DNA of 64,000 nucleotides from Methanotrichaceae archaeon (GTDB lineage: Archaea; Halobacteriota; Methanosarcinia; Methanotrichales; Methanotrichaceae): the NCBI GenBank assembly GCA_963803145.1, contig CAWDLW010000012.1:171435-235434 (forward strand), given 5' to 3'. The notes beneath the pieces are model-generated. The model was not told where the DNA came from and searched no databases. It saw only the letters and a list, made by a program, of their open reading frames with translations. Positions 5,349 through 14,326 of the stretch are shown piece by piece. The stretch's first letter is position 1. Each line of letters begins with the position of its first letter. Position numbers and translations under genes: made by a program.

Positions 5349-8144
5349 GTGAACACATTCAGTCGGCTCTATCCCTCAATTGGAAAGATGCTAGCGGAGC
5401 AATCGATCACAGAGCCGACGCTGCCGCAAAAGCTGGCGATTCCTGAGATCTTGGATGGCAGAAACATTCTTCTGATAGCTCCTACGGGCACCGGCAAGAC
5501 TGAAGCTGCAGCTCTTCCAGTTCTCCATAAAATCCTAGCGGAGGAGCGTTCTGGAACACAGGCTATCTATATCACGCCTCTGCGCGCCCTGAACAGGGAT
5601 ATGCTCAGACGTTTCGAAGAGTGGGGTGAGCGGCTGAACATATCAATCGCAGTTCGCCATGGAGATACAAGCAAAAGCGATAGAAGAAGACAGTCATTGA
5701 GTCCGCCTGATCTTTTGATCACTACCCCAGAAACTCTGCAGGTGATGCTCACTGGAAAGCGGCTGCGCAAAAATCTATCGAGCGTGAAGACAGTAATAGT
5801 CGATGAGATCCATGAGCTTGCATCATCAAAGAGAGGATCGCAGCTCTTTGTCCTTCTCGAGCGGCTGGTCGAGATCGCCGGCGAGTTCCAAAGGATCGGC
5901 CTGTCTGCTACTGTCGGATCGCCTGAGCAGGTTGCAAGGCTTCTTGCAGGCTCGCAAAGGCCATATAAAATCATCAGGGCAGATATCCAGAGGGCTAGCG
6001 ATTTTAAGATTGTCAGCCCTAACCCTACGCGAGCAGATTATGCTCTCGCAAGCCAGCTGGAATGCGATCCTAGGTTAGCTGCACAGATTGGTTGGATCAG
6101 GGAGCAGGTCAAACTAAAGAAGTGTCTTATTTTCGTCAACACAAGACAGGCGGCTGAAGTTCTGGGCTCCAGGTTCAGGCTGCTTGGAGAGCCGATAGGA
6201 GTTCATCACGGGAGCCTCTCAGCCGAGACCAGGGTCGAGGCGGAGGAGGCGTTCAAAGGAGGCGCTCTTCGCGGCCTTATCTGCACATCATCAATGGAGC
6301 TTGGAATCGACATCGGTGATGTCGATCATGTCATCCAGTACAGCTCTCCTCGTGAGGTCTCAAGGCTGCTACAGCGAGTAGGTCGTTCAGGCCATAAGAT
6401 AGGCCGAACGGCAGAAGGCACAATAATTGCCACATGCCCGGATGATATCGCCGAAGCATGTGCAATTGCAAGACGAGCTGGAGAGGCAATGCTCGAAGAG
6501 ATTCAGATTCACGAGAAGCCGATGGATGCTCTCGCAAATCAGATTGTAGGATTAGAGCTGGACTTCGGCGACATAAGCCTCCAGCAAGCTCATAGAATCA
6601 TAACCAGGGCTTATCCCTTCCGTGACCTAACGCTTGATGAGCTGAGGAAAGTAGCAGAGCAGATAGCCGAAAGCAGACTTACACGAATTCAGGGTGATAT
6701 CCTCCAGAGGACACGTAAGGCCCGCGAGTACTACTACGAGAACCTCTCGATGATTCCCGATGAGAAGAGATACAATGTCTACGACATCATCGGCCGCAAA
6801 TCGATAGGAACATTGGATGAGGCATTTGTAGTCAGCTATGCCCAGCCTGGTGCAACTTTTGTAACAAAGGGCGAGATCTGGGAGATCTCGGAGATCGACG
6901 AGGACGAGATCAAGGTCATGCCTATTCAGCGCAGCGGCGAAATTCCATCCTGGAGCGGTGAAGAAATACCTGTTCCATTCGATGTGGCACAGGAGGTAGG
7001 CAGGATAAGGGAAAGTGTCCGACTATATCTGGAATCCGATGGCAAGGATGCTGCTGTAAACTGGCTGACCGAAAGCTATCCTGTTGATCGTGAGGCTGCA
7101 GCAGAGTTTATCGATCTGATAGAGATGCAGATAAGGAAAAATCTGCCGGTCCCCGATGACAAACATATCGTTATTGAGGGAGGCGGCACCGAAGTTATCA
7201 TAAACTCATGCTTCGGCCACAAGACAAACGATACCCTGGGAAGGGCAATAACGGCTATGCTCTCTGCAAAGTTCGGATCAAGCGTTGCTTCAGAGATAGA
7301 TCCTTACAGGATAGAGCTGACATTGCCGCGTTCCGTGATCGCTGAGGAGATCGCAAAAACGATCATGGAGCTGAAACCCGAGCATCTGGAGCCGATCCTT
7401 GAGATGACCCTCAAGAATACCACTCTGCTCAAGTGGAAGATGGTTCATATCGCCAGGAAGTTCGGAGCTCTATCTAGGGATGTGGACTTCCAGAGAATTA
7501 GCATAAACAGGCTGCTCTCAGTATTCGAGGGAACGCCAATGTACCGTGAAGCAATACGGGAAATATACCAGGATCGGTTAGATCTCCCCCGTGCCAGGCA
7601 AATACTCGAAGAGATTCACAAAGGCAACATCGTTATTACCACCAGCAGCCCGAGTCCAATAGGTGCCAGCGGCAGGGGAGGCGGCAGAGATGTGACGTCG
7701 CCGGAGCATGCAGATGGCGCAGTAATAGAGCTTCTGAAATCAAGGATCATGAACGATTCCGTGATATTATTCTGCGTCAACTGCAAGAAGTGGAAGTCGC
7801 TCCGTGCAGTGGGCCGCGTTCCGGAGCAGCCTGAATGTCCCATCTGCGGCTCCAAGATGGTCGCAGCCCTCAAGCCCTGGGAAGAAGAGGAGATAAAGGT
7901 AGTCAAGAAGCCCGAAAAGAAGAAGACGCCAGAAGATCGTCGAAGGACAAAGCGGGTCTTCAGGAATGCCAATCTTGTCTTGAGCTATGGCAAAACTGCG
8001 GCAATTGCGCTTGCGAGCCGCGGACTTGGGCCCGAGACCGCGGCAAGAGTAATCGGCAAGCTTCGAACAGATGAGCTTGAGTTCTATCGGGATATCCTGA
8101 AGGCGGAGAGGGAGTATGCGAGGACGAAGAGGTTCTGGAGTTAA
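5349..8144 (+). CDS. lhr: Lhr-like SF2 DEAD/DEAH-box helicase with C-terminal Cys-rich (Zn-finger-like) motif
   Basis: APTGTGKT, TTPETL, VDEIHE, GLSAT, HHGSLS, SSMELGIDIG, QRVGRSGH motifs; CVNC...CPICG near the C-terminus. Confidence 0.92.
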   Translation: MNTFSRLYPSIGKMLAEQSITEPTLPQKLAIPEILDGRNILLIAPTGTGKTEAAALPVLHKILAEERSGTQAIYITPLRALNRDMLRRFEEWGERLNISIAVRHGDTSKSDRRRQSLSPPDLLITTPETLQVMLTGKRLRKNLSSVKTVIVDEIHELASSKRGSQLFVLLERLVEIAGEFQRIGLSATVGSPEQVARLLAGSQRPYKIIRADIQRASDFKIVSPNPTRADYALASQLECDPRLAAQIGWIREQVKLKKCLIFVNTRQAAEVLGSRFRLLGEPIGVHHGSLSAETRVEAEEAFKGGALRGLICTSSMELGIDIGDVDHVIQYSSPREVSRLLQRVGRSGHKIGRTAEGTIIATCPDDIAEACAIARRAGEAMLEEIQIHEKPMDALANQIVGLELDFGDISLQQAHRIITRAYPFRDLTLDELRKVAEQIAESRLTRIQGDILQRTRKAREYYYENLSMIPDEKRYNVYDIIGRKSIGTLDEAFVVSYAQPGATFVTKGEIWEISEIDEDEIKVMPIQRSGEIPSWSGEEIPVPFDVAQEVGRIRESVRLYLESDGKDAAVNWLTESYPVDREAAAEFIDLIEMQIRKNLPVPDDKHIVIEGGGTEVIINSCFGHKTNDTLGRAITAMLSAKFGSSVASEIDPYRIELTLPRSVIAEEIAKTIMELKPEHLEPILEMTLKNTTLLKWKMVHIARKFGALSRDVDFQRISINRLLSVFEGTPMYREAIREIYQDRLDLPRARQILEEIHKGNIVITTSSPSPIGASGRGGGRDVTSPEHADGAVIELLKSRIMNDSVILFCVNCKKWKSLRAVGRVPEQPECPICGSKMVAALKPWEEEEIKVVKKPEKKKTPEDRRRTKRVFRNANLVLSYGKTAAIALASRGLGPETAARVIGKLRTDELEFYRDILKAEREYARTKRFWS

Positions 8145-8492
8145 GATCGATTGCTCCTCTGATCTTGAAATCTTCAGATCCGCAGGAGAGCATATCGCTA
8201 TGATCACTTTAGATTATCTCAATCGTCTATATGTTCCAATAATTCTTCACCATTAGTTTTGTGGCCCAGAGGTATGTTTTAAATCTCCCTCCTTTACTTA
8301 CCGCTGGGTCATCTCTTCTCTGATCATCTAACATAGCAAGATCAATGAAGTTTGTGACTCAAGGCCGATGAAACTGATGCGCTCATATCCACGATAAAGC
8401 CCTAGGGCCATAGGCTACAGCTATATGGATATGCTTGCCTTCCAATAAGCCATTAAACCATCAAGATAATCAGCACCCACAAGGTGCAAAAC

Positions 8493-8620: not shown

Positions 8621-9257
8621 TGTGGATGGGATAAAGGGCATCCGTATACAACTTAGGGATGGATCAGCTAGCCAATTGTGATTTAATGCGGCGACGCCTC
8701 GCATGCCTCACTGTTTGCAGCGTGAGATAAAATACCGGTAAGAACCTTTTTCATCGAACTTGGAAGGATCACCTATAATTATATTATCCTTGCCATTCTG
8801 TTAGCTGTCGCTTTACATTTTCAAAGGTTGGGTCTTTGATCCTTTCGAAAATTTTAAGCGCAGACTGAGCATAGTCAACAGCCTTAGATTGTTCCCCTAT
8901 CTTATATAATACGAGGCTTATATTCCATAAGGCATTGCCCTCTCCAGCAGGGACTCCAATCTTACGGAAGATTTCTAATGATTGCTCATAGGATTCGATG
9001 GCCTGGCGAGATTCGCCTAGTCTCTCATAGGCCACACCAAGGTTGCCTAAAACGTTTGCCTTTCCTTTAAGATCTCCAATATTATTAGCAATTTCTAATC
9101 TCTTTTCATAATATTCAATTGCCTGGATAGGTTCGCCTAACGCACAGTATGCAATGCCTAAATTATTTAAATCTGCACATTCTCCTTTCAGATCTCTTAA
9201 TTCTCTGTCAATTATCAGAGCTTTCTTATAAAATTCAATAGCATATTGAAGCTTACC

Positions 9258-10395
9258 GAGGATTCCTATTTACTTGTATCCTAAGGGCGGTTTTTTTAAA
9301 TCGACTCTAGATTTGCCTTACGATGTTCGCTATTCTTGGTCTAACCTGTTTTTTTTCAGTTAATTCTCGATAGCATCCGCTATCCCTAAATGACATTTGC
9401 CTTTTTAAGAGTACAAAGCTGATACAAGTTAAAAGCGAAAGCGGTAACTATCATTTTCACATGCACTCTTCTGACTGATGTAACAAGCACTCTTCCAGCC
9501 TCGAAAACCCTCTTGATTACAGCATGGGGCCTTTCGCCAGGCGATCTGAGGATACTGATCAACTGATTGCGTTCTTTATCAAGATCAGAAAGAGGTTTAT
9601 CAGTAGTCCTGCGCTTCATTGTAAAATCAATACCTTTGGCCTTCACACCGAAATATCCTCTATCTCTGAAAACTGGCACGCCAGGGATAGAGAGATCAAC
9701 CTGACTGTCATGCAGTGATGCAGTCGAGGTCTCTATATCACGTATTAGGCTGTAATCGATATCAGTTATTTGATGTAACTTATATCCGAAGTGAGTTTCA
9801 TTGCCTTTCTTAGCCCATGTGCCATCCTTGCTGCGACGTGTCTTAGCCTCATCGCCACGTGGTTTCTTTGACTCCGATGATCCTGGATCTGCTTCTATAA
9901 AGGTAGCATCCTGAACAATTCCGCGTCTGATCTTCAATCCTTTTGCATCCAACTGTCTTTGAAGTTCAGCCCAAACAAGCCTATCTGTTCCTGTCTCCGC
10001 CATTCGTTCTTTGAATGACCATATAGTTCTGGAATCAGGGAACTGATCAGGAAAACCAAGAAATGCCATAAATGATATGCGATCAGCCATTTGCCGTTCA
10101 ACAGCCAGATCGCTCAGGCCATACCACTGCTGGAGAATCAGGATCCTGAACATTAGAATAACATCACAGTTGGGCCTTCCTCCCTTCTCGGTCTTATTAG
10201 TATACATCCCTTCCAGAAGAGGACGAAAGGGAACCCAATTGATCAATCCAGATACTTGAGCTAATTTAGACTCCTCTTGCTTTGCATTTAGACCTTTCAA
10301 TACCCAAGTAGTAAAAGAATCCATAACAATAAATACTATTTGCTGTATTTAACACTTTCGATGCTAAAGCAGGGGGTAGGTTTATAGGAATCCTC
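9258..10395 (-). mobile_element. IS5-family insertion sequence, 1138 bp
   Basis: 16-bp TIRs GAGGATTCCTATTTAC (9258-9273) and GTTTATAGGAATCCTC (10380-10395), 14/16 match; 4-bp TSD TACC at 9254-9257 and 10396-10399. Confidence 0.95.
9386..10324 (-). CDS. IS5-family DDE transposase
   Basis: GRP, LQQWYGLSD, QDATFI, FGYKLH, DRGY, RSPGERPH motifs. Confidence 0.95.
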   Translation of the reverse strand: MDSFTTWVLKGLNAKQEESKLAQVSGLINWVPFRPLLEGMYTNKTEKGGRPNCDVILMFRILILQQWYGLSDLAVERQMADRISFMAFLGFPDQFPDSRTIWSFKERMAETGTDRLVWAELQRQLDAKGLKIRRGIVQDATFIEADPGSSESKKPRGDEAKTRRSKDGTWAKKGNETHFGYKLHQITDIDYSLIRDIETSTASLHDSQVDLSIPGVPVFRDRGYFGVKAKGIDFTMKRRTTDKPLSDLDKERNQLISILRSPGERPHAVIKRVFEAGRVLVTSVRRVHVKMIVTAFAFNLYQLCTLKKANVI

Positions 10396-12416
10396 TACCT
10401 ATTGATAGATAAATAGTCCCTATATTCCCTAGAACTGTTTCTTCTCCGACAAGATCTTTAATTTCTTGGGAGATCTTAAGGCTTTTATTATAGAAATCTA
10501 ATGCAATATGAGGCTTACCTAGTTTTAAATATATATTACCTAGATCACATAATGCTGTATATTCTCCCTTGATATCCCTTAAATAACATGAAATTTCCAA
10601 TCGCTTTTCATGCATCTGAATACCCTGTTGAAATTTCCCAGTTTGCGAATAGATTCTGCCTAAAGAACTCAAAGCTTTGCTTGCCCCTCTTAAATCCCCT
10701 CTCCCTAAATGGATTTCTAAAGCCTTCCGATACGATTCATCAGCTTTTTTTAACTTCCCCAGATGCTGATAAACCCTACCGAGATTGCCACAGGCGTTGC
10801 CTTCGCCATACTTATCTCCAATTTTATGGGCTATATGAAGAAATCTCTTAAAAAGTTTAAGGGCATTATGGTAATCTCCAAAATGAATATTGGCGTTACC
10901 CATATTGCCTAGTACATAACACTCTAATTGGCGATTTCTAATCTTATGGGCGACAGCAAGTGCCTGATTATAATAATCAATAGCAAGATGCATATCTCCT
11001 AGATCAGCACAAGCTAAGCCTAACAGATTAAGGAAAGCTCCCTCGTTGTTGTAATCTCCAATAGCAAGCGCAGCCTGTAAGCCTGCTTTGGCTACCTTAA
11101 CTCTTTCTGTTGAATAGCCTTGTAAATCTAAGTAATTATCGAACATTAAGGTTATTTTACAGACAGCATCCCATTCACTAGCATCAAGGCAAGCAGATTG
11201 TAGCGCTAAAATATGAGCGCGATTAGTATCAATGATGATCTTACCTGGTAGACCCGGACCCCCTTGCTCCTTTAATAAGTTACAGTAATATTGAGCAAGG
11301 CGTAATAACATATCATGCTCCGTTACTAGATCTTTTCGTGCGTATGTATATGCTAATGTATGCGCTACGTGATAGAACGTATCAGGTCTTATTATCAAAC
11401 CGTAATCTACTAGCTCCCCCAAATGGCGATCAGCTTCATGTCTAGGTATATTTAAGGCTGTAGCGATGAGTTCTGGACCAAAAGGGCTCATTGCTAATAT
11501 GCCAGCCACCCTAAATGAGGCGCGTGATAACTCACTTAGCTGATCTAAGCTACGCTTCATTAATACAGGTATACTTTGATGCTGCCGCTCTCCTAGGTCT
11601 AGGGCTGCCAGAGGTGTGGCCTCAAGCCATGCAAGATAATCCTCGGCTTGTTGATGGCATTGAGACATATATTTTCCTGCTAGAACGATCGCAAGGGGTA
11701 AGCCCCCCAGGAATTCACAAATCCTATTAGCTGATACTTCATCGGCTGCATAATTATGCCCCCATGCACGTAATAGCTGGATAGCTTGGTCTTGTGGTAA
11801 AGGTGATAAATCACTCCAATCGGCAGGAGCATCTCTATGACGTCGACTAGTAATGATAATACCACAACTCACAGCAACCTCTAAGATTACATCCAAATTA
11901 TCGGCAGATTCAGCACCATCTAATATAAGAAGGGCTTTGCGACCTGCCAATGCACGGCGAGCAGTATCGATTGGGCTGGGTCGTGGATCTTCTCCAAATG
12001 CACGGGCTAATGCCTCTAAGGCAAGACTGGCCTGGGGTTGATGGTAAAATGTATGAAAAATCACTCCATCTGGAAATTGACTGGGGGGACTATTATCAGG
12101 GGCAAGGCGCCAAAGTATCTCAGATACAAGAGCAGTCTTGCCGATACCTCCTGGACCACATAATGTAACTGCATAACCAGGCTTTAATGAATCTAATAAG
12201 GTTGCAAGTTCCTTTTCACGGCCAACAAAATGGTGGGTTCGGGGCGGCTTCTGCAGAGGGATATGTAGTGAAAGAGACGGCGCGTTAATAATGACTGGCC
12301 CATGAAACTTTCCAGAAAGCACTGGGCCATCTGCATTTCCCCTTATGTTAGTCTGGGAACCATCTCCAGCTTTATCCTGTTGGCTCATGGTGGATTCCCT
12401 TTATTATCCGATATTT

Positions 12417-12854
12417 TCATTTGGATTCTCTTGCGTTAACTGAACCGTGGAAATTGCCTGAAAGCACAGGGCCATTTACATTACCAGCGATGTTTGTCTG
12501 TGAGCCATGGATTATTTGTCCACGCTGATCGAAAACACTGCTGGCTGTACCTTTCTCTTCAATTGCTTCAATTAACTTGCCTACTTCTTCAGCGAACTTC
12601 GTGTCCTTTTCCATTTTTTCAGCTAAGACATCCTTAAGTGCTGCCTGCCTATCTTCTGACTCAGGTTTCTCTTTTGCGCGAGCTAGCGTTTGCTCGGCGA
12701 ATGTGTCTCCTTTGAATTTATTCTCGACTGCCTGGCATAATTCCACAAACTTTTTGCCGAGTCCCTCGCCAGCAGTTTTGATAAATGAATCTCCTCCCTT
12801 GGCAAGATAGGGGGCTGCTGCAGCTGCGATTAATCCAACATCGACAGGTAACAT
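12417..12854 (-). CDS. Bell-like helical effector domain with C-terminal putative amyloid signalling motif
   Basis: ~100-aa helical domain with a hydrophobic N-terminal helix (AAAAAPYLAKGG...P.SEDRQAALKDVL...D.KFAEEV), then GSQTNIAGNVNGPVLSGNFHGSV, 18/23 identical to the N-terminus of the adjacent NLR. Confidence 0.8.
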   Translation of the reverse strand: MLPVDVGLIAAAAAPYLAKGGDSFIKTAGEGLGKKFVELCQAVENKFKGDTFAEQTLARAKEKPESEDRQAALKDVLAEKMEKDTKFAEEVGKLIEAIEEKGTASSVFDQRGQIIHGSQTNIAGNVNGPVLSGNFHGSVNARESK

Positions 12855-13007: not shown

Positions 13008-14326
13008 CTATTTATCACGCTTTTGTTTTTCAATAGGGCTGTCGAGCGTAACTTCATGAATGAAAGTTCCTGAAAGTACGTGTCCATGCACATCGCCGTA
13101 AATATTCGTTATGGCTTTTGCTCCTATGAACAAAGAGGTTAATAAGACCAGCTTTAAAGTTTCAAATCTCTGTTCTAATGTTGCTGTATCTTGAGATTCT
13201 AATAGAGCAAGGGTTTCAAGATACTCTTGTGCCTCCTTGGGAAATTTTTTGCAGTGAAGCTTCAGAAGTGGAACAATCTCCAGCAAATAACGATCTGCAG
13301 CTATTGGTGAGCTGATATCTTTCAACCCCTTAGTTGCATCGTAAGTAAGCTTTCCGAAATCTTCAAGAGCAGTTCCCTTAGAGCTTTTACAGAGCTTCCG
13401 TGCTGCATCCTCTACATCCTTAAATATAGTCTTGATTTTATCATCGATGATCGGGATTCCCCTTTCAACCATAGCAGCATCTACTACCTTGGAAGCAAAA
13501 GGTGCTCTGCCCCTTACCCTCTCCAAGCAATCCACTGCCTGGAAGCAATATCTAGTGTAGGCTTTGAGATCCTGTTTCCGAGATATCATATCTTCCACGG
13601 TATATGTCTTGACCTCCCAGAGAGCCTTAGATAGGTTATCCACAGCTTCAAGGAGGATCTCCTCCATACTCTCAGAGACTTTTACTGCCTCCTTAGCCTC
13701 TTAGCCTCAGCTAGATATCTCTGGATCTCCTCTGCCTTAGATACATCTCTAAACAAAAGACTGTGTAGTGATTTATAAAAGGGCAGACAAAAAACAGCAT
13801 GGTTCTCATTTCTCCAATTCCCCGGGCTATCCGAGGATTTTTGGAAGAATTCGATCGCTTCTTCTAGGTGAGCTTTGAGATCCCTATCATCGGCCTCAGT
13901 TGCCTTGAAGATGCATGCCCGACCTAAGGAATGATAGGAGATAGACCTGATGGCTTCATCCTTCTCCTTAGAGAGCCTATCTAATTCTCTCCAAACTAGA
14001 GACTTGTAAGGCAAGCTAGGGAATAACGATCCAAGCACGCAGCCTACTTCCCATCGTACATAGCGATTCCGGTCATTAGCTAATCTGTGAAGATCCTGCC
14101 ATACAAGATGATCGCTAGGCAAGTTAGGGAACGCCAACTCAATCGCGGCAACTGCATATTTTCGCACAAGAAAATGGTGATCCTGGGTTAGCCTATGTAG
14201 GTCTTGCCAGGCAGCTTCTTTGTCATCCAGATGGTCAAACTCGTTTCCGAGCAGTGTTGCAGCATGTTGCCTATGTTCTGTACTCTCAGAAATTGACATC
14301 TCATGGATCTCTGCGTAGGATACCAA
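13008..14326 (-). pseudogene. HEAT-repeat protein with C-terminal copy of the amyloid-like motif, split by an 8-bp duplication
   Basis: WQDLHRL..D...VR HEAT-like repeats in ORF 13682-14326. TTAGCCTC is duplicated at 13693-13708; removing one copy fuses it with ORF 13008-13667 (RYLAEAKEAVKVSESMEEILLEAVDNL, 436 aa). Ends ...TNIYGDVHGHVLSGTFIHEV... Confidence 0.85.

Follow-up and report, generated by a model that had tools for sequence, protein, structure and literature searches.

The 64,000-nucleotide stretch of archaeal DNA analysed here (the window) contains, on its minus strand, three adjacent genes sharing one BASS-like, amyloid-type motif: a gene of a HEAT-repeat family, a Bell-like gene directly downstream of it (ORF, 12854..12417), and then an NB-ARC/TPR gene (ORF, 12388..10382). 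The HEAT-family gene is present as two ORFs in different reading frames. The N-terminal ORF (13682..14326, minus strand; 214 aa) comprises about three HEAT repeats (PF13646 HEAT_2 in Pfam; 30.1 bits, cut-off 27.7) and the beginning of a conserved helical domain, and aligns to the N-terminal regions of the homologs P0001–P0018. The C-terminal ORF (13008..13667, minus strand; 219 aa) contains the family's conserved helical domain in residues 1–183, followed by the motif tail. Near the junction lies a perfect 8-bp tandem duplication (AGGCTAAG twice; 13692..13707, minus strand), which shifts the frame and leads to a stop at 13682–13684, with the downstream frame being open from just past the first 8-bp copy. 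The homologs are continuous over the split (YLAEAK-EA...SES...LLEAV, uninterrupted). The read contigs recovered for the region, three of 151 bases from two metagenome runs, extend over neither the duplication nor the tail. The two ORFs are one gene, broken by the duplication present in the assembly, as the initial annotation had supposed in describing the motif-bearing gene as split. Besides the duplication, both halves are stop-free and align with the homologs over the whole length, which argues for a recent inactivation of the HEAT gene and not for long decay.

The Bell-like gene (12417..12854, minus strand) is intact and encodes a protein of 145 aa with a hydrophobic N-terminus and a full motif at the C-terminus (about 12438–12497). 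No match of this protein reached the cut-off in Pfam, and none was found in NCBIfam or PADLOC; its size, its hydrophobic N-terminus, and its position beside an NLR gene fit the description of the Bell domain as a helical unit of about 120–140 aa with a hydrophobic first helix, and many genomes of the order have homologous ORFs next to NLR genes (E, 1e-41 to 3e-57). The NLR-like gene (10382..12388, minus strand) encodes NB-ARC (31.1 bits; cut-off 23.5) and TPR_12 (103.9 bits) domains in Pfam and carries its motif at the N-terminus (about 12296–12355). Its 3′ part is severed by an IS5-like insertion sequence (9258..10395, minus strand; transposase ORF, 10324..9386, with DUF772 and DDE_Tnp_1), which has 12-bp terminal inverted repeats and a 4-bp target duplication and is present in 13 copies in the genome (that of the window and 12 others; 98.4–100% identity). 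The displaced C-terminal TPR part (8784..9257, minus strand; 157 codons) is in frame with the upstream part after removal of the element and one target copy, and its end resembles the C-terminus of an intact NLR on contig C34. The lesions in the HEAT and NLR genes both look recent. With the former frameshifted and the latter broken, the circuit in this genome would consist at best of the Bell gene and the 219-aa fragment; the three-component circuit envisaged in the initial annotation is thus borne out as to three adjacent motif carriers, but not as an intact set in this genome. At the second locus, on contig C34, an orphan ORF has the other motif half alone. In a same-genus genome, only the Bell and NLR genes match the window; the flanks do not.

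The 219-aa ORF terminates in TNIYGDVHGHVLSGTFIHEV (13050..13109, minus strand) plus 13 further residues, and this segment corresponds to the middle and second portions of the family motif. Against the Bell motif it has 12/20 identical residues when counted by hand and 12/21 in a second comparison, so that both the coordinates and the identity noted initially hold. The upstream part, FDQRGQ-x-V-x-G, is missing from the HEAT tail, which therefore lacks the full-length motif; that part is present in the C34 NLR and the Bell copies, and the NLR of the window has no more than a degenerate form of it. Among the copies, the HEAT tail is the most diverged. The core pattern G-x-[VI]-[LIVM]-S-G-x-F occurs four times in the whole genome (8.27 million six-frame residues), three times within about 800 bp at the window locus and once in the second Bell gene on contig C34. 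An independent motif profile was built from 21 instances from other genomes, including no HEAT tail and no sequence from the genome of the window. Against this profile the HEAT tail scored 24.6 bits (E, 5e-5), ranking fifth among the 72,419 six-frame ORFs of the whole genome, below four canonical motifs (44–61 bits) and above a next match with an E of 0.38; the Bell and NLR motifs of the window scored 57.2 and 44.0 bits, respectively. A chance similarity is ruled out by the pattern count and the profile E-value, and the HEAT-tail motif is, by these sequence measures, real beyond chance, which upholds the proposal of a third carrier at this locus.

The motifs of the HEAT tail, Bell, NLR, P0025, and P0033 (the last two being relatives described below) share the invariant columns T-N-I, G, L-S-G, and F. 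Since the HEAT motif of the window shows only 54–65% DNA identity to the other motifs and yet retains all eight invariant residues, it does not appear to be a recent copy. The arrangement of the motifs (residues 12–31 of the NLR, the C-terminus of Bell, and the C-terminus of the HEAT protein) follows the BASS-type layout. A complex prediction with three Bell tails and the HEAT tail gave a score of 0.18 against a mark of 0.32, a value that speaks neither for binding nor against it.

A family search with the 219-aa ORF yielded 241 representatives at E ≤ 1e-3, and members are found in Methanotrichaceae, Methanosarcina, Methanoperedens, and ANME-2. They constitute an archaeal α-solenoid family in which a variable number of HEAT repeats is followed by the conserved helical domain, then by a coiled coil, and finally by a hydrophobic helix at the C-terminus; the central domain, marked by the blocks FCLPFY..., LLEAVxNLS..., and Y.RYC..., is continuous with the HEAT repeats. 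The 18 longer homologs P0001–P0018 are 47–62% identical to the 219-aa ORF and cover only 79–83% of it (residues 1–183), and no match in the 104 other genomes of the order extends past residue 183. All of the 16 homologs that were fetched from these 18 run on for about 160 more residues, 15 of them finishing in the hydrophobic helix and one (P0009) having a different end. The window gene is devoid of the usual coiled coil and hydrophobic C-terminal helix, with the motif tail in their place. None of the other reading frames of the tail DNA encodes the usual continuation of the family, and a frameshifted form of that continuation is thereby ruled out. Judged from these alignments, the motif substitutes for the last module of the window gene and is not appended to it.

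Members of the family vary in repeat content: the near-identical P0010, P0011, and P0012 are 672, 780, and 708 aa long, the difference between P0010 and P0011 being made up of whole repeats, and P0002 contains near-identical tandem repeats. Paralogs also occur in tandem arrays (four copies at locus L112 and two each at L118, L120, and L121). The structure model of P0025 consists of solenoid only, with a likeness to PP2A-A, armadillo, and importin folds (Foldseek E against PP2A-A and armadillo solenoids, 4e-5 to 7e-4); its score against HEAT_2 is 23.1 bits, below the 27.7 cut-off. Residues 473–496 of the monomer model have pLDDT values below 50, indicating a disordered tail, as would be expected of such motifs in a monomer. 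A structure search with P0003 returned generic helical matches only (the highest Z was 10.1, against an expected value of roughly 13 for helical proteins). In NCBIfam, only HEAT-type matches were obtained for the family, all sub-threshold; the best Atlas score was 0.76, with nothing usable, PADLOC gave no match that would assign the family to defence, and neither a PIN nor a GreA/B-C domain was found in the HEAT protein with Pfam. Altogether, the Pfam, NCBIfam, PADLOC, and fold searches on the HEAT carrier revealed helical repeats only and no recognisable effector domain; an unrecognised one may still be present.

The same tail at the same domain boundary was found in only two other proteins, P0025 and P0033, both of metagenomic origin and encoded on JGI/IMG contigs of 7,343 and 1,146 bp, respectively. 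The former is an intact ORF of 496 aa with HEAT repeats, the helical domain, and the motif tail, and the latter is a fragment with the motif tail; their tails match the independent profile with E-values of 2.9e-5 and 3.8e-4, respectively. Between these two proteins the tail is about 67% and the neighbouring domain 70% identical (by-eye count), with 69% in the overall alignment, suggesting that the tail is conserved about as well as the adjoining domain. This bears on the concern, raised initially, that the tail might be a chance recombination scar, and speaks against it. Both proteins end in a V-N-x-S-K-N-like stretch, reminiscent of Bell ends. The tail is rare. Sequence collections of 1.84 and 5.8 billion entries yielded no more than three tailed proteins, and protein searches with the tail alone and with a tail profile returned P0025, the ORF of the window, and P0001 (partial coverage) only. 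Genome scans gave no confirmed match with the tail alignment, and 25 loci, none of them tailed, with a narrower family alignment; a metagenome scan for the surroundings of P0025 and P0033 added 12 other loci at 32–46% identity, again none tailed and none of them the contig of P0025. Most family members thus lack the tail, whereas P0025 and P0033 possess it at the same boundary. In a quick tree, the three tailed proteins do not form one clade and three changes are needed, but a single origin of the tail is not rejected in the AU test (p, 0.19).

At 37 loci with untailed family genes, there were no motif matches (E ≤ 1) and no Bell or NLR neighbours. Adjacency to Bell and NLR genes accordingly appears specific to the tailed gene, with the window locus alone making up the tailed side of the comparison. 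From the recurrence in two relatives and the lack of motif, Bell, and NLR at the 37 untailed loci, the HEAT–motif fusion is, as far as the sequences tell, real and probably selected, but rare.

Amyloid templating from an NLR to a membrane-targeting effector is established in fungi and bacteria, and in archaea it is inferred from sequence only. To our knowledge, such motifs are carried by NLRs, by executioner or enzyme domains, and by one TPR/PIN sensor. Like BASS Bell/NLR pairs, the window has adjacent, collinear Bell and NB-ARC/TPR genes with a motif of about 20–30 residues that is C-terminal in the effector and N-terminal in the NLR, and the host likewise belongs to a filamentous methanogen lineage. 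Unlike those pairs, it has an extra carrier, a HEAT solenoid without an effector-type domain and with a partial motif, which there takes the place of the C-terminal module in a family that is otherwise unrelated. Portions of Dyrka 2020 (bioRxiv 10.1101/2020.01.06.895854) describe a single repeat on the NLR versus two or three on Bell, and list a Methanothrix Bell protein and archaeal pairs missed by the BASS1–10 profiles. Passages of PMC8086366 likewise report a Methanothrix motif that 'resembles BASS3' and was missed by those profiles, and a Methanothrix soehngenii NLR peptide with the first half of the motif family that formed amyloid-like aggregates (FTIR, Congo red). No paper describing a HEAT-repeat motif carrier was found in the literature search, with 'HEAT' having no occurrence in the Dyrka 2020 text, and the novelty claimed for such a carrier at the outset therefore holds within that search.

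The premise that amyloid-signalling loci are two-component does not stand. The fungal clusters HELLP/SBP/PNT1 (PP motif) and SESA/SESB/HET-eN (sigma motif), as described in part of PMC5485727, comprise, like the window, three adjacent genes with one amyloid motif, and clusters with three or more motif genes, as well as non-Bell carriers, are common in this archaeal order. According to the same part of that source, one NLR can serve two partners and one effector several NLRs. The fungal clusters differ in that their motif families are different, the organism of the window is an archaeon, and their third partner is a predicted lipase (effector), whereas that of the window is a repeat solenoid and more sensor-like. 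A further likeness is offered by the Escherichia coli antiphage system Bab/Agp, in which, as set out in sections of bioRxiv 10.1101/2024.11.07.622273, Agp carries the motif together with TPR, GreA/B-C, and PIN but no NTPase, and activates Bab. Here an NTPase-free, α-helical-repeat (TPR) partner activates a small Bell-related executioner through a shared motif; the likeness to the HEAT protein extends to the proposed working only, there being no sequence relationship between Agp and the HEAT protein. The Agp motif is N-terminal and accompanied by GreA/B-C and PIN, whereas that of the HEAT protein is C-terminal, without such domains, and beside a canonical NLR. Three-gene clusters and NTPase-free motif sensors are therefore already known, and the HEAT-solenoid carrier is a new sort of partner. 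HEAT repeats are, in the relevant passages of PMC12258605, a major sensor domain of fungal NLRs.

In the reading that we favour, with a rough probability of 0.45, the tail is a functional docking motif and the HEAT protein an NTPase-free input triggering the Bell effector alongside the NLR. The repeat solenoid would bind a cue and cluster, the clustered tails would take on a cross-β fold and template the Bell motif, and the templated Bell protein would then act on the membrane, so that the HEAT protein would be a second trigger, free of an NTPase and parallel to the NLR. The NLR motif occupies the place of the effector domain of all-in-one proteins, and the HEAT motif the C-terminal place of what would be the output module of its family. 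The solenoid-only structure, the varying repeat number, the near-identical repeats, and the tandem paralogs fit a recognition module. Sensor-side motifs are typically shorter or partial (many NLR-side matches in the order span only the first 18–28 model positions), and the HEAT tail is partial too. The second, NTPase-independent sensor, one of the roles suggested in the initial annotation, is thus preferred here, but is not new as a kind, since Agp is known. Counting against this role are the score of the tail, far below those of the canonical motifs (24.6 versus 44–61 bits), and the missing half at the start of the motif, the one that the published amyloid-forming peptide contains. No part of the HEAT protein is an obvious driver of oligomerisation, the tailed proteins number only three, and the HEAT and NLR genes of the window are broken. 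Moreover, the normal C-terminal module of the family is an effector only by supposition, with no defence family matched and generic fold matches.

The C-terminal placing of the motif and the location of the gene upstream of Bell also count against an input role, being the effector pattern in the order, where all separate effectors observed (Bell, and Peptidase_C14 at locus L079) bear the motif C-terminally. They point instead to an arrangement in which the activated NLR would start the fold and the fibril would take in Bell as well as the HEAT protein, whose gene is on the effector side, with the solenoid bringing a client or being switched itself as a second output; one NLR with two effectors is documented for fungi in part of PMC5485727. 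We consider this possible but doubtful, because nothing catalytic or membrane-active is left once the coiled coil and hydrophobic tail are lost, a partial motif is what sensor-side partners show, and a replaced C-terminal module fits an outsourced output better than an acquired input. The divergence and incompleteness of the tail, with a bulky solenoid adjoining it, could alternatively suit a regulator that docks on the end of the Bell/NLR fibril without propagating, thus damping the cell-death switch or setting its threshold, and the C34 orphan ORF with the other motif half suggests that half-motif proteins exist in this genome. Such a cap seems highly improbable: the partial motifs on NLRs of the order are presumably activating and not inhibitory, and no precedent was found in literature searches, which did not target capping proteins. 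It would also be costly for a cell to lose the inhibitor of its suicide switch, and yet the HEAT gene is broken, an argument weakened by the NLR being broken as well.

It is also conceivable that the tail has no function and is a rearrangement leftover, in which a truncated HEAT gene and the 3′ end of what had been a Bell-type gene were joined at a decaying, IS-ridden locus; the tails of P0025 and P0033 would then have arisen by accident in parallel or go back to that one neutral event. The two broken genes, the 13 copies of the insertion sequence, the very rare architecture, and the weak motif score are in line with this, as are the stop soon after the motif, like the Bell C-terminus, and the Bell-like ends of the two relatives. 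We nevertheless regard it as quite unlikely, since the tail has either been kept across about 50% divergence of the adjoining domain or originated repeatedly, matches that domain in its degree of conservation between P0025 and P0033, and retains 8/8 invariant residues in the window at the low DNA identity given above. P0025 is in addition an intact ORF, and the halves of the window gene, stop-free apart from the 8-bp duplication, indicate recent inactivation.

If the HEAT protein does serve as an input, the motif would be a portable plug that lets non-STAND proteins tap into a cell-death switch, and the fusion would provide the first functional handle for a large, unannotated archaeal HEAT family; this value is limited by the rarity of the architecture (three proteins), by adjacency known at one tailed locus, and by the broken copy in the window. 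A wider proposition, which we think unlikely, is that the HEAT family represents an unrecognised class of NTPase-free, repeat-based archaeal sensors with their own coiled-coil/tail-anchor output, rarely outsourced to Bell through the amyloid motif. If true, this would be an all-in-one versus two-component split as in NLRs, on a non-STAND scaffold and with the opposite polarity (C-terminal motif). The order-wide survey also placed the motif on CHAT and caspase domains, at positions between fused domains, and in clusters that include several NLRs; together, these settings make a compact natural collection in which the wiring of such circuits could be studied.

The split HEAT-repeat gene (13008–14326), the small Bell-like effector gene (Bell), and the NB-ARC/TPR sensor gene (NLR) form four collinear reading frames on the minus strand. 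The N-terminal HEAT ORF (14326..13682, 214 aa) matches HEAT_2 above the Pfam threshold, and the C-terminal HEAT ORF (13667..13008, 219 aa) has no Pfam match. The Bell-like ORF (12854..12417, 145 aa) gives no Pfam match above the cut-off, and the NLR ORF (12388..10382, 668 aa) matches NB-ARC and many TPR models of Pfam. The Bell/NLR pair is an ordinary archaeal pair of the bacterial amyloid signalling sequence (BASS) type; such pairs have been noted before for Methanothrix (bioRxiv 10.1101/2020.01.06.895854; PMC8086366). The division of the HEAT gene into two ORFs, described in the initial annotation, was confirmed. The two ORFs lie in different frames, and the assembly contains a perfect 8-bp tandem duplication at 13707..13692; past the first copy, no stop interrupts the frame of the downstream ORF. 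Because of this duplication, and because all fetched homologs are single polypeptides through the split point, the ORFs represent one gene with a +8 frameshift. The lesion looks recent, since both halves are, apart from the duplication, stop-free and align full length with the homologs. The identical 219-aa product is recorded from three sources, which argues weakly against an error of a single assembly as the cause of the split. The NLR gene is interrupted by an IS5-like element (9258..10395, 1,138 bp; DUF772 and DDE_Tnp_1 transposase) with 12-bp inverted ends and a 4-bp target duplication, and removal of the element and one target copy brings the displaced TPR end (9257..8784, 157 codons) back in frame. 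The genome carries 13 copies of the element (that in the window and 12 others) with 98.4–100% identity, which looks like a recent burst. Bell is intact, and two of the three motif genes (HEAT and NLR) have fresh lesions.

A word-indexed search for longer proteins yielded 18 homologs of the 219-aa ORF (406–883 aa, 47–62% identical), each covering only 79–83% of it, and a scan of 1.84 billion representatives with the HEAT ORF gave 241 matches (E ≤ 1e-3). The 16 longer homologs that were fetched share a conserved helical domain and vary in their number of HEAT repeats. Beyond a common boundary (...L-V-Q-G-E-N-D-D...) all 16 run on for ~160 residues, and 15 of them end in a hydrophobic helix, the ending of P0009 being different; in the model of the homolog P0003, this C-terminal module is composed of long helices and the terminal helix. 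In the window HEAT gene, homology ends at the common boundary and the motif tail follows. A frameshifted form of the usual continuation was ruled out, as translating the tail DNA in its other two frames does not give it. On these grounds, and with only 153 bp between the HEAT-gene stop and the Bell start, the usual module has been replaced by the tail, not merely cut short.

The model of P0025, a metagenomic tailed relative, is all-helical (mean pLDDT, 82.8; last 24 residues, <50) and retrieved PP2A-A, designed armadillo, and importin-alpha solenoids with Foldseek; the central domain and C-terminal module of P0003 gave generic helical matches only in the structure search. None of the defence and curated families of PADLOC and NCBIfam fits the HEAT family. 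Record titles place it in Methanotrichaceae, Methanosarcina, Methanoperedens, and ANME-2, and it is present in 23 of the 105 genomes of the order, which all belong to one taxonomic family. The near-identical P0010, P0011, and P0012 are unequal in length (672, 708, and 780 aa among them), with P0010 and P0011 differing by whole HEAT repeats; near-identical tandem repeats occur inside one family protein, and tandem arrays of two to four family paralogs are frequent (L112, L118, L120, and L121). Judged by this variation in repeat number, the tandem repeats, and the paralog arrays, the family has traits of a fast-evolving recognition module. Five members lacking the motif (P0047, P0105, P0136, P0051, and P0055) contain other G/N/Q-rich stretches with alternating hydrophobics at the end or inside (for example, ...V-Q-I-G-N-G-N...), which could be amyloid-type motifs of another kind. 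At locus L095 (G040:C10, 3709–6316), the closest untailed homolog outside the source genome is likewise present as two neighbouring ORFs: one of 431 aa consists of HEAT repeats, and one of 419 aa has repeats and the central domain. They may be separate genes or the halves of a split one.

The C-terminus of the 219-aa ORF consists of TNIYGDVHGHVLSGTFIHEV and 13 further residues. Its motif (13050–13109) agrees at 12 of 20 positions with the one that ends the Bell-like protein (145 aa), in line with the position and identity reported initially, and is also similar to the NLR N-terminus. A six-frame scan of the whole assembly (4.13 Mb; 8.27 million residues) for the core pattern G-x-[VI]-[LIVM]-S-G-x-F gave four matches, three in the window locus and one in another Bell gene, on contig C34. 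An independent profile, based on 21 instances of the motif taken from other genomes in the order, with the HEAT tails and this genome excluded, was run with filters off on all 72,419 six-frame ORFs of at least 30 aa; the four canonical motifs scored 44–61 bits, and the HEAT tail ranked fifth (24.6 bits; E, 5e-5), ahead of the next match at E 0.38. Chance similarity is excluded by the rarity of the core pattern together with the profile result. Judged by its score relative to those of the canonical motifs, the tail is a statistically significant member of the motif family, though clearly diverged. It covers the central T-N-I plus G-x-V-L-S-G-x-F-x-x-x-V part and is devoid of the upstream F-D-Q-R-G-Q-x-V-x-G part, which is present in Bell copies and, as a variant, in NLRs. 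At the nucleotide level, the window HEAT motif is only 54–65% identical to the remaining motifs of this genome; all 8 of the 8 invariant residues are nevertheless kept.

Among 167 family proteins (the 18 longer homologs and 149 new proteins among the 150 best of the 241 representatives), three carry the motif: the window ORF, P0025 (one intact ORF of 496 aa with HEAT repeats, helical domain, and tail; E in the independent profile, 2.9e-5), and P0033 (a 152-aa fragment from a 1.1-kb contig; E, 3.8e-4). In both relatives the motif lies directly behind the boundary found in the window, and the linker exceeds that of the window by four to five residues. Their tails are identical in 26 of 39 columns and the preceding domains in 40 of 57 (by-eye count on the alignment; 69% overall), and the tail is thus conserved about as well as the domain before it. 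Two further searches aimed at the tail found no additional carriers, and among the 29 family matches listed for the genomes of the order, that of the source genome excepted, none extends past residue 183 of the 219-aa ORF. A quick tree was built from 34 rows, namely four distant ones and those of P0001–P0033 that had 100 or more aligned residues, after merging of identical rows. On it, the tailed proteins require three changes; a single clade of the three is not rejected by the AU test (p, 0.19). Whether of single or repeated origin, the tail has persisted across ~50% divergence. The tail is not a one-off scar, as it recurs at the same boundary in two other proteins. None of 37 loci with untailed genes (25 in the genome collection, 12 metagenomic; several are short) contains a motif match at E ≤ 1 or a Bell or NLR neighbour, and eight larger untailed regions agree. 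The proposed specificity of the motif for copies beside Bell/NLR genes agrees with these untailed loci, and its positive side consists of one locus, the window HEAT gene, which is the sole tailed copy with visible context and abuts Bell/NLR. The fusion of a HEAT solenoid to the motif of its locus, in place of its own C-terminal module and beside Bell/NLR, is real and recurrent; the architecture is rare, and broken in this genome.

The motif profile matches 33 of the 105 genomes. In 20 fetched regions, the motif is located at the C-terminus of Bell proteins and the N-terminus of NLRs; it is also C-terminal in a Peptidase_C14 protein (L079) and internal to Peptidase_C14 proteins with a helical extension (L075 and L076). 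Single proteins join Peptidase_C14, motif, and NB-ARC/TPR (L085, 3603–6761; L092, 2736–5252), Bell, motif, and NLR (L077, 4154–6463), or Bell, motif, and a CHAT domain (L074, 8440–9693; L083, 7348–8478). The amyloid-type motif is retained as the internal linker of these all-in-one proteins, though inter-protein templating would seem unnecessary there. Clusters with at least three motif or NLR genes were found at L074, L079, and L085. L074 (G040:C61, 1833–9693) and L079 (G057:C30, 4534–9548) show one motif-bearing effector with two or three successive NLR genes, and also a caspase that has its motif at the C-terminus and NLR genes on both sides; circuits with several sensors seem to be common in this order. 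Since such clusters occur and many NLR-side copies cover the first motif part only, multi-partner wiring and partial motifs are normal here, and the HEAT carrier is the unusual element. The earlier view that amyloid loci are two-component only does not hold, given these clusters and the fungal three-gene clusters (PMC5485727). Bacterial motif carriers other than Bell are known (bioRxiv 10.1101/2020.01.06.895854). No report of a HEAT-repeat carrier was found in the literature searched, in line with the initial annotation, and HEAT occurs 0 times in the text of Dyrka 2020, supplements aside.

The tail would dock the HEAT protein onto the Bell/NLR amyloid, and we tentatively favour a place on the input side of the circuit (probability, about 0.45). 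The motif stands where the output module of the family was, as NLR motifs are read, nothing able to execute a response remains in the protein, and partial motifs typify sensor-side partners (bioRxiv 10.1101/2020.01.06.895854). By analogy, a non-NLR, NTPase-free, repeat-based sensor fires a Bell-type protein in E. coli (bioRxiv 10.1101/2024.11.07.622273), and fungal NLRs use HEAT repeats as sensor domains (PMC12258605). Against this assignment, a C-terminal motif and a gene placed upstream of Bell are effector traits in this order, and no oligomerisation engine is visible in the HEAT protein. A receiver or scaffold is a rather doubtful reading.

The weak motif score also speaks against the input side, as does the missing first motif half, which is the part present in the sole related peptide shown to aggregate (PMC8086366). 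A non-propagating cap, in which a motif of this partial kind would end a fibril, is very improbable, partial copies on the NLRs of this order being presumably activating. A functionless rearrangement relic is improbable; the gene is frameshifted here, and the tail is kept at the same boundary in the intact P0025. The initial interpretation of the HEAT protein as a third partner is partly supported: it is a genuine motif carrier, in a genome where its own gene is frameshifted and the NLR interrupted.

A second, intact Bell/NLR motif locus is present in the same genome (L043, contig C34, ~5600–8439), in the order Bell with full motif, an ORF of 140–149 aa, and NLR with motif. The middle ORF has only the first motif half at its N-terminus (FDQRDQIIDGPQINI...), followed by a domain without a Pfam, NCBIfam, or PADLOC match, and occurs in 1 of the 105 genomes of the order, the source genome itself.
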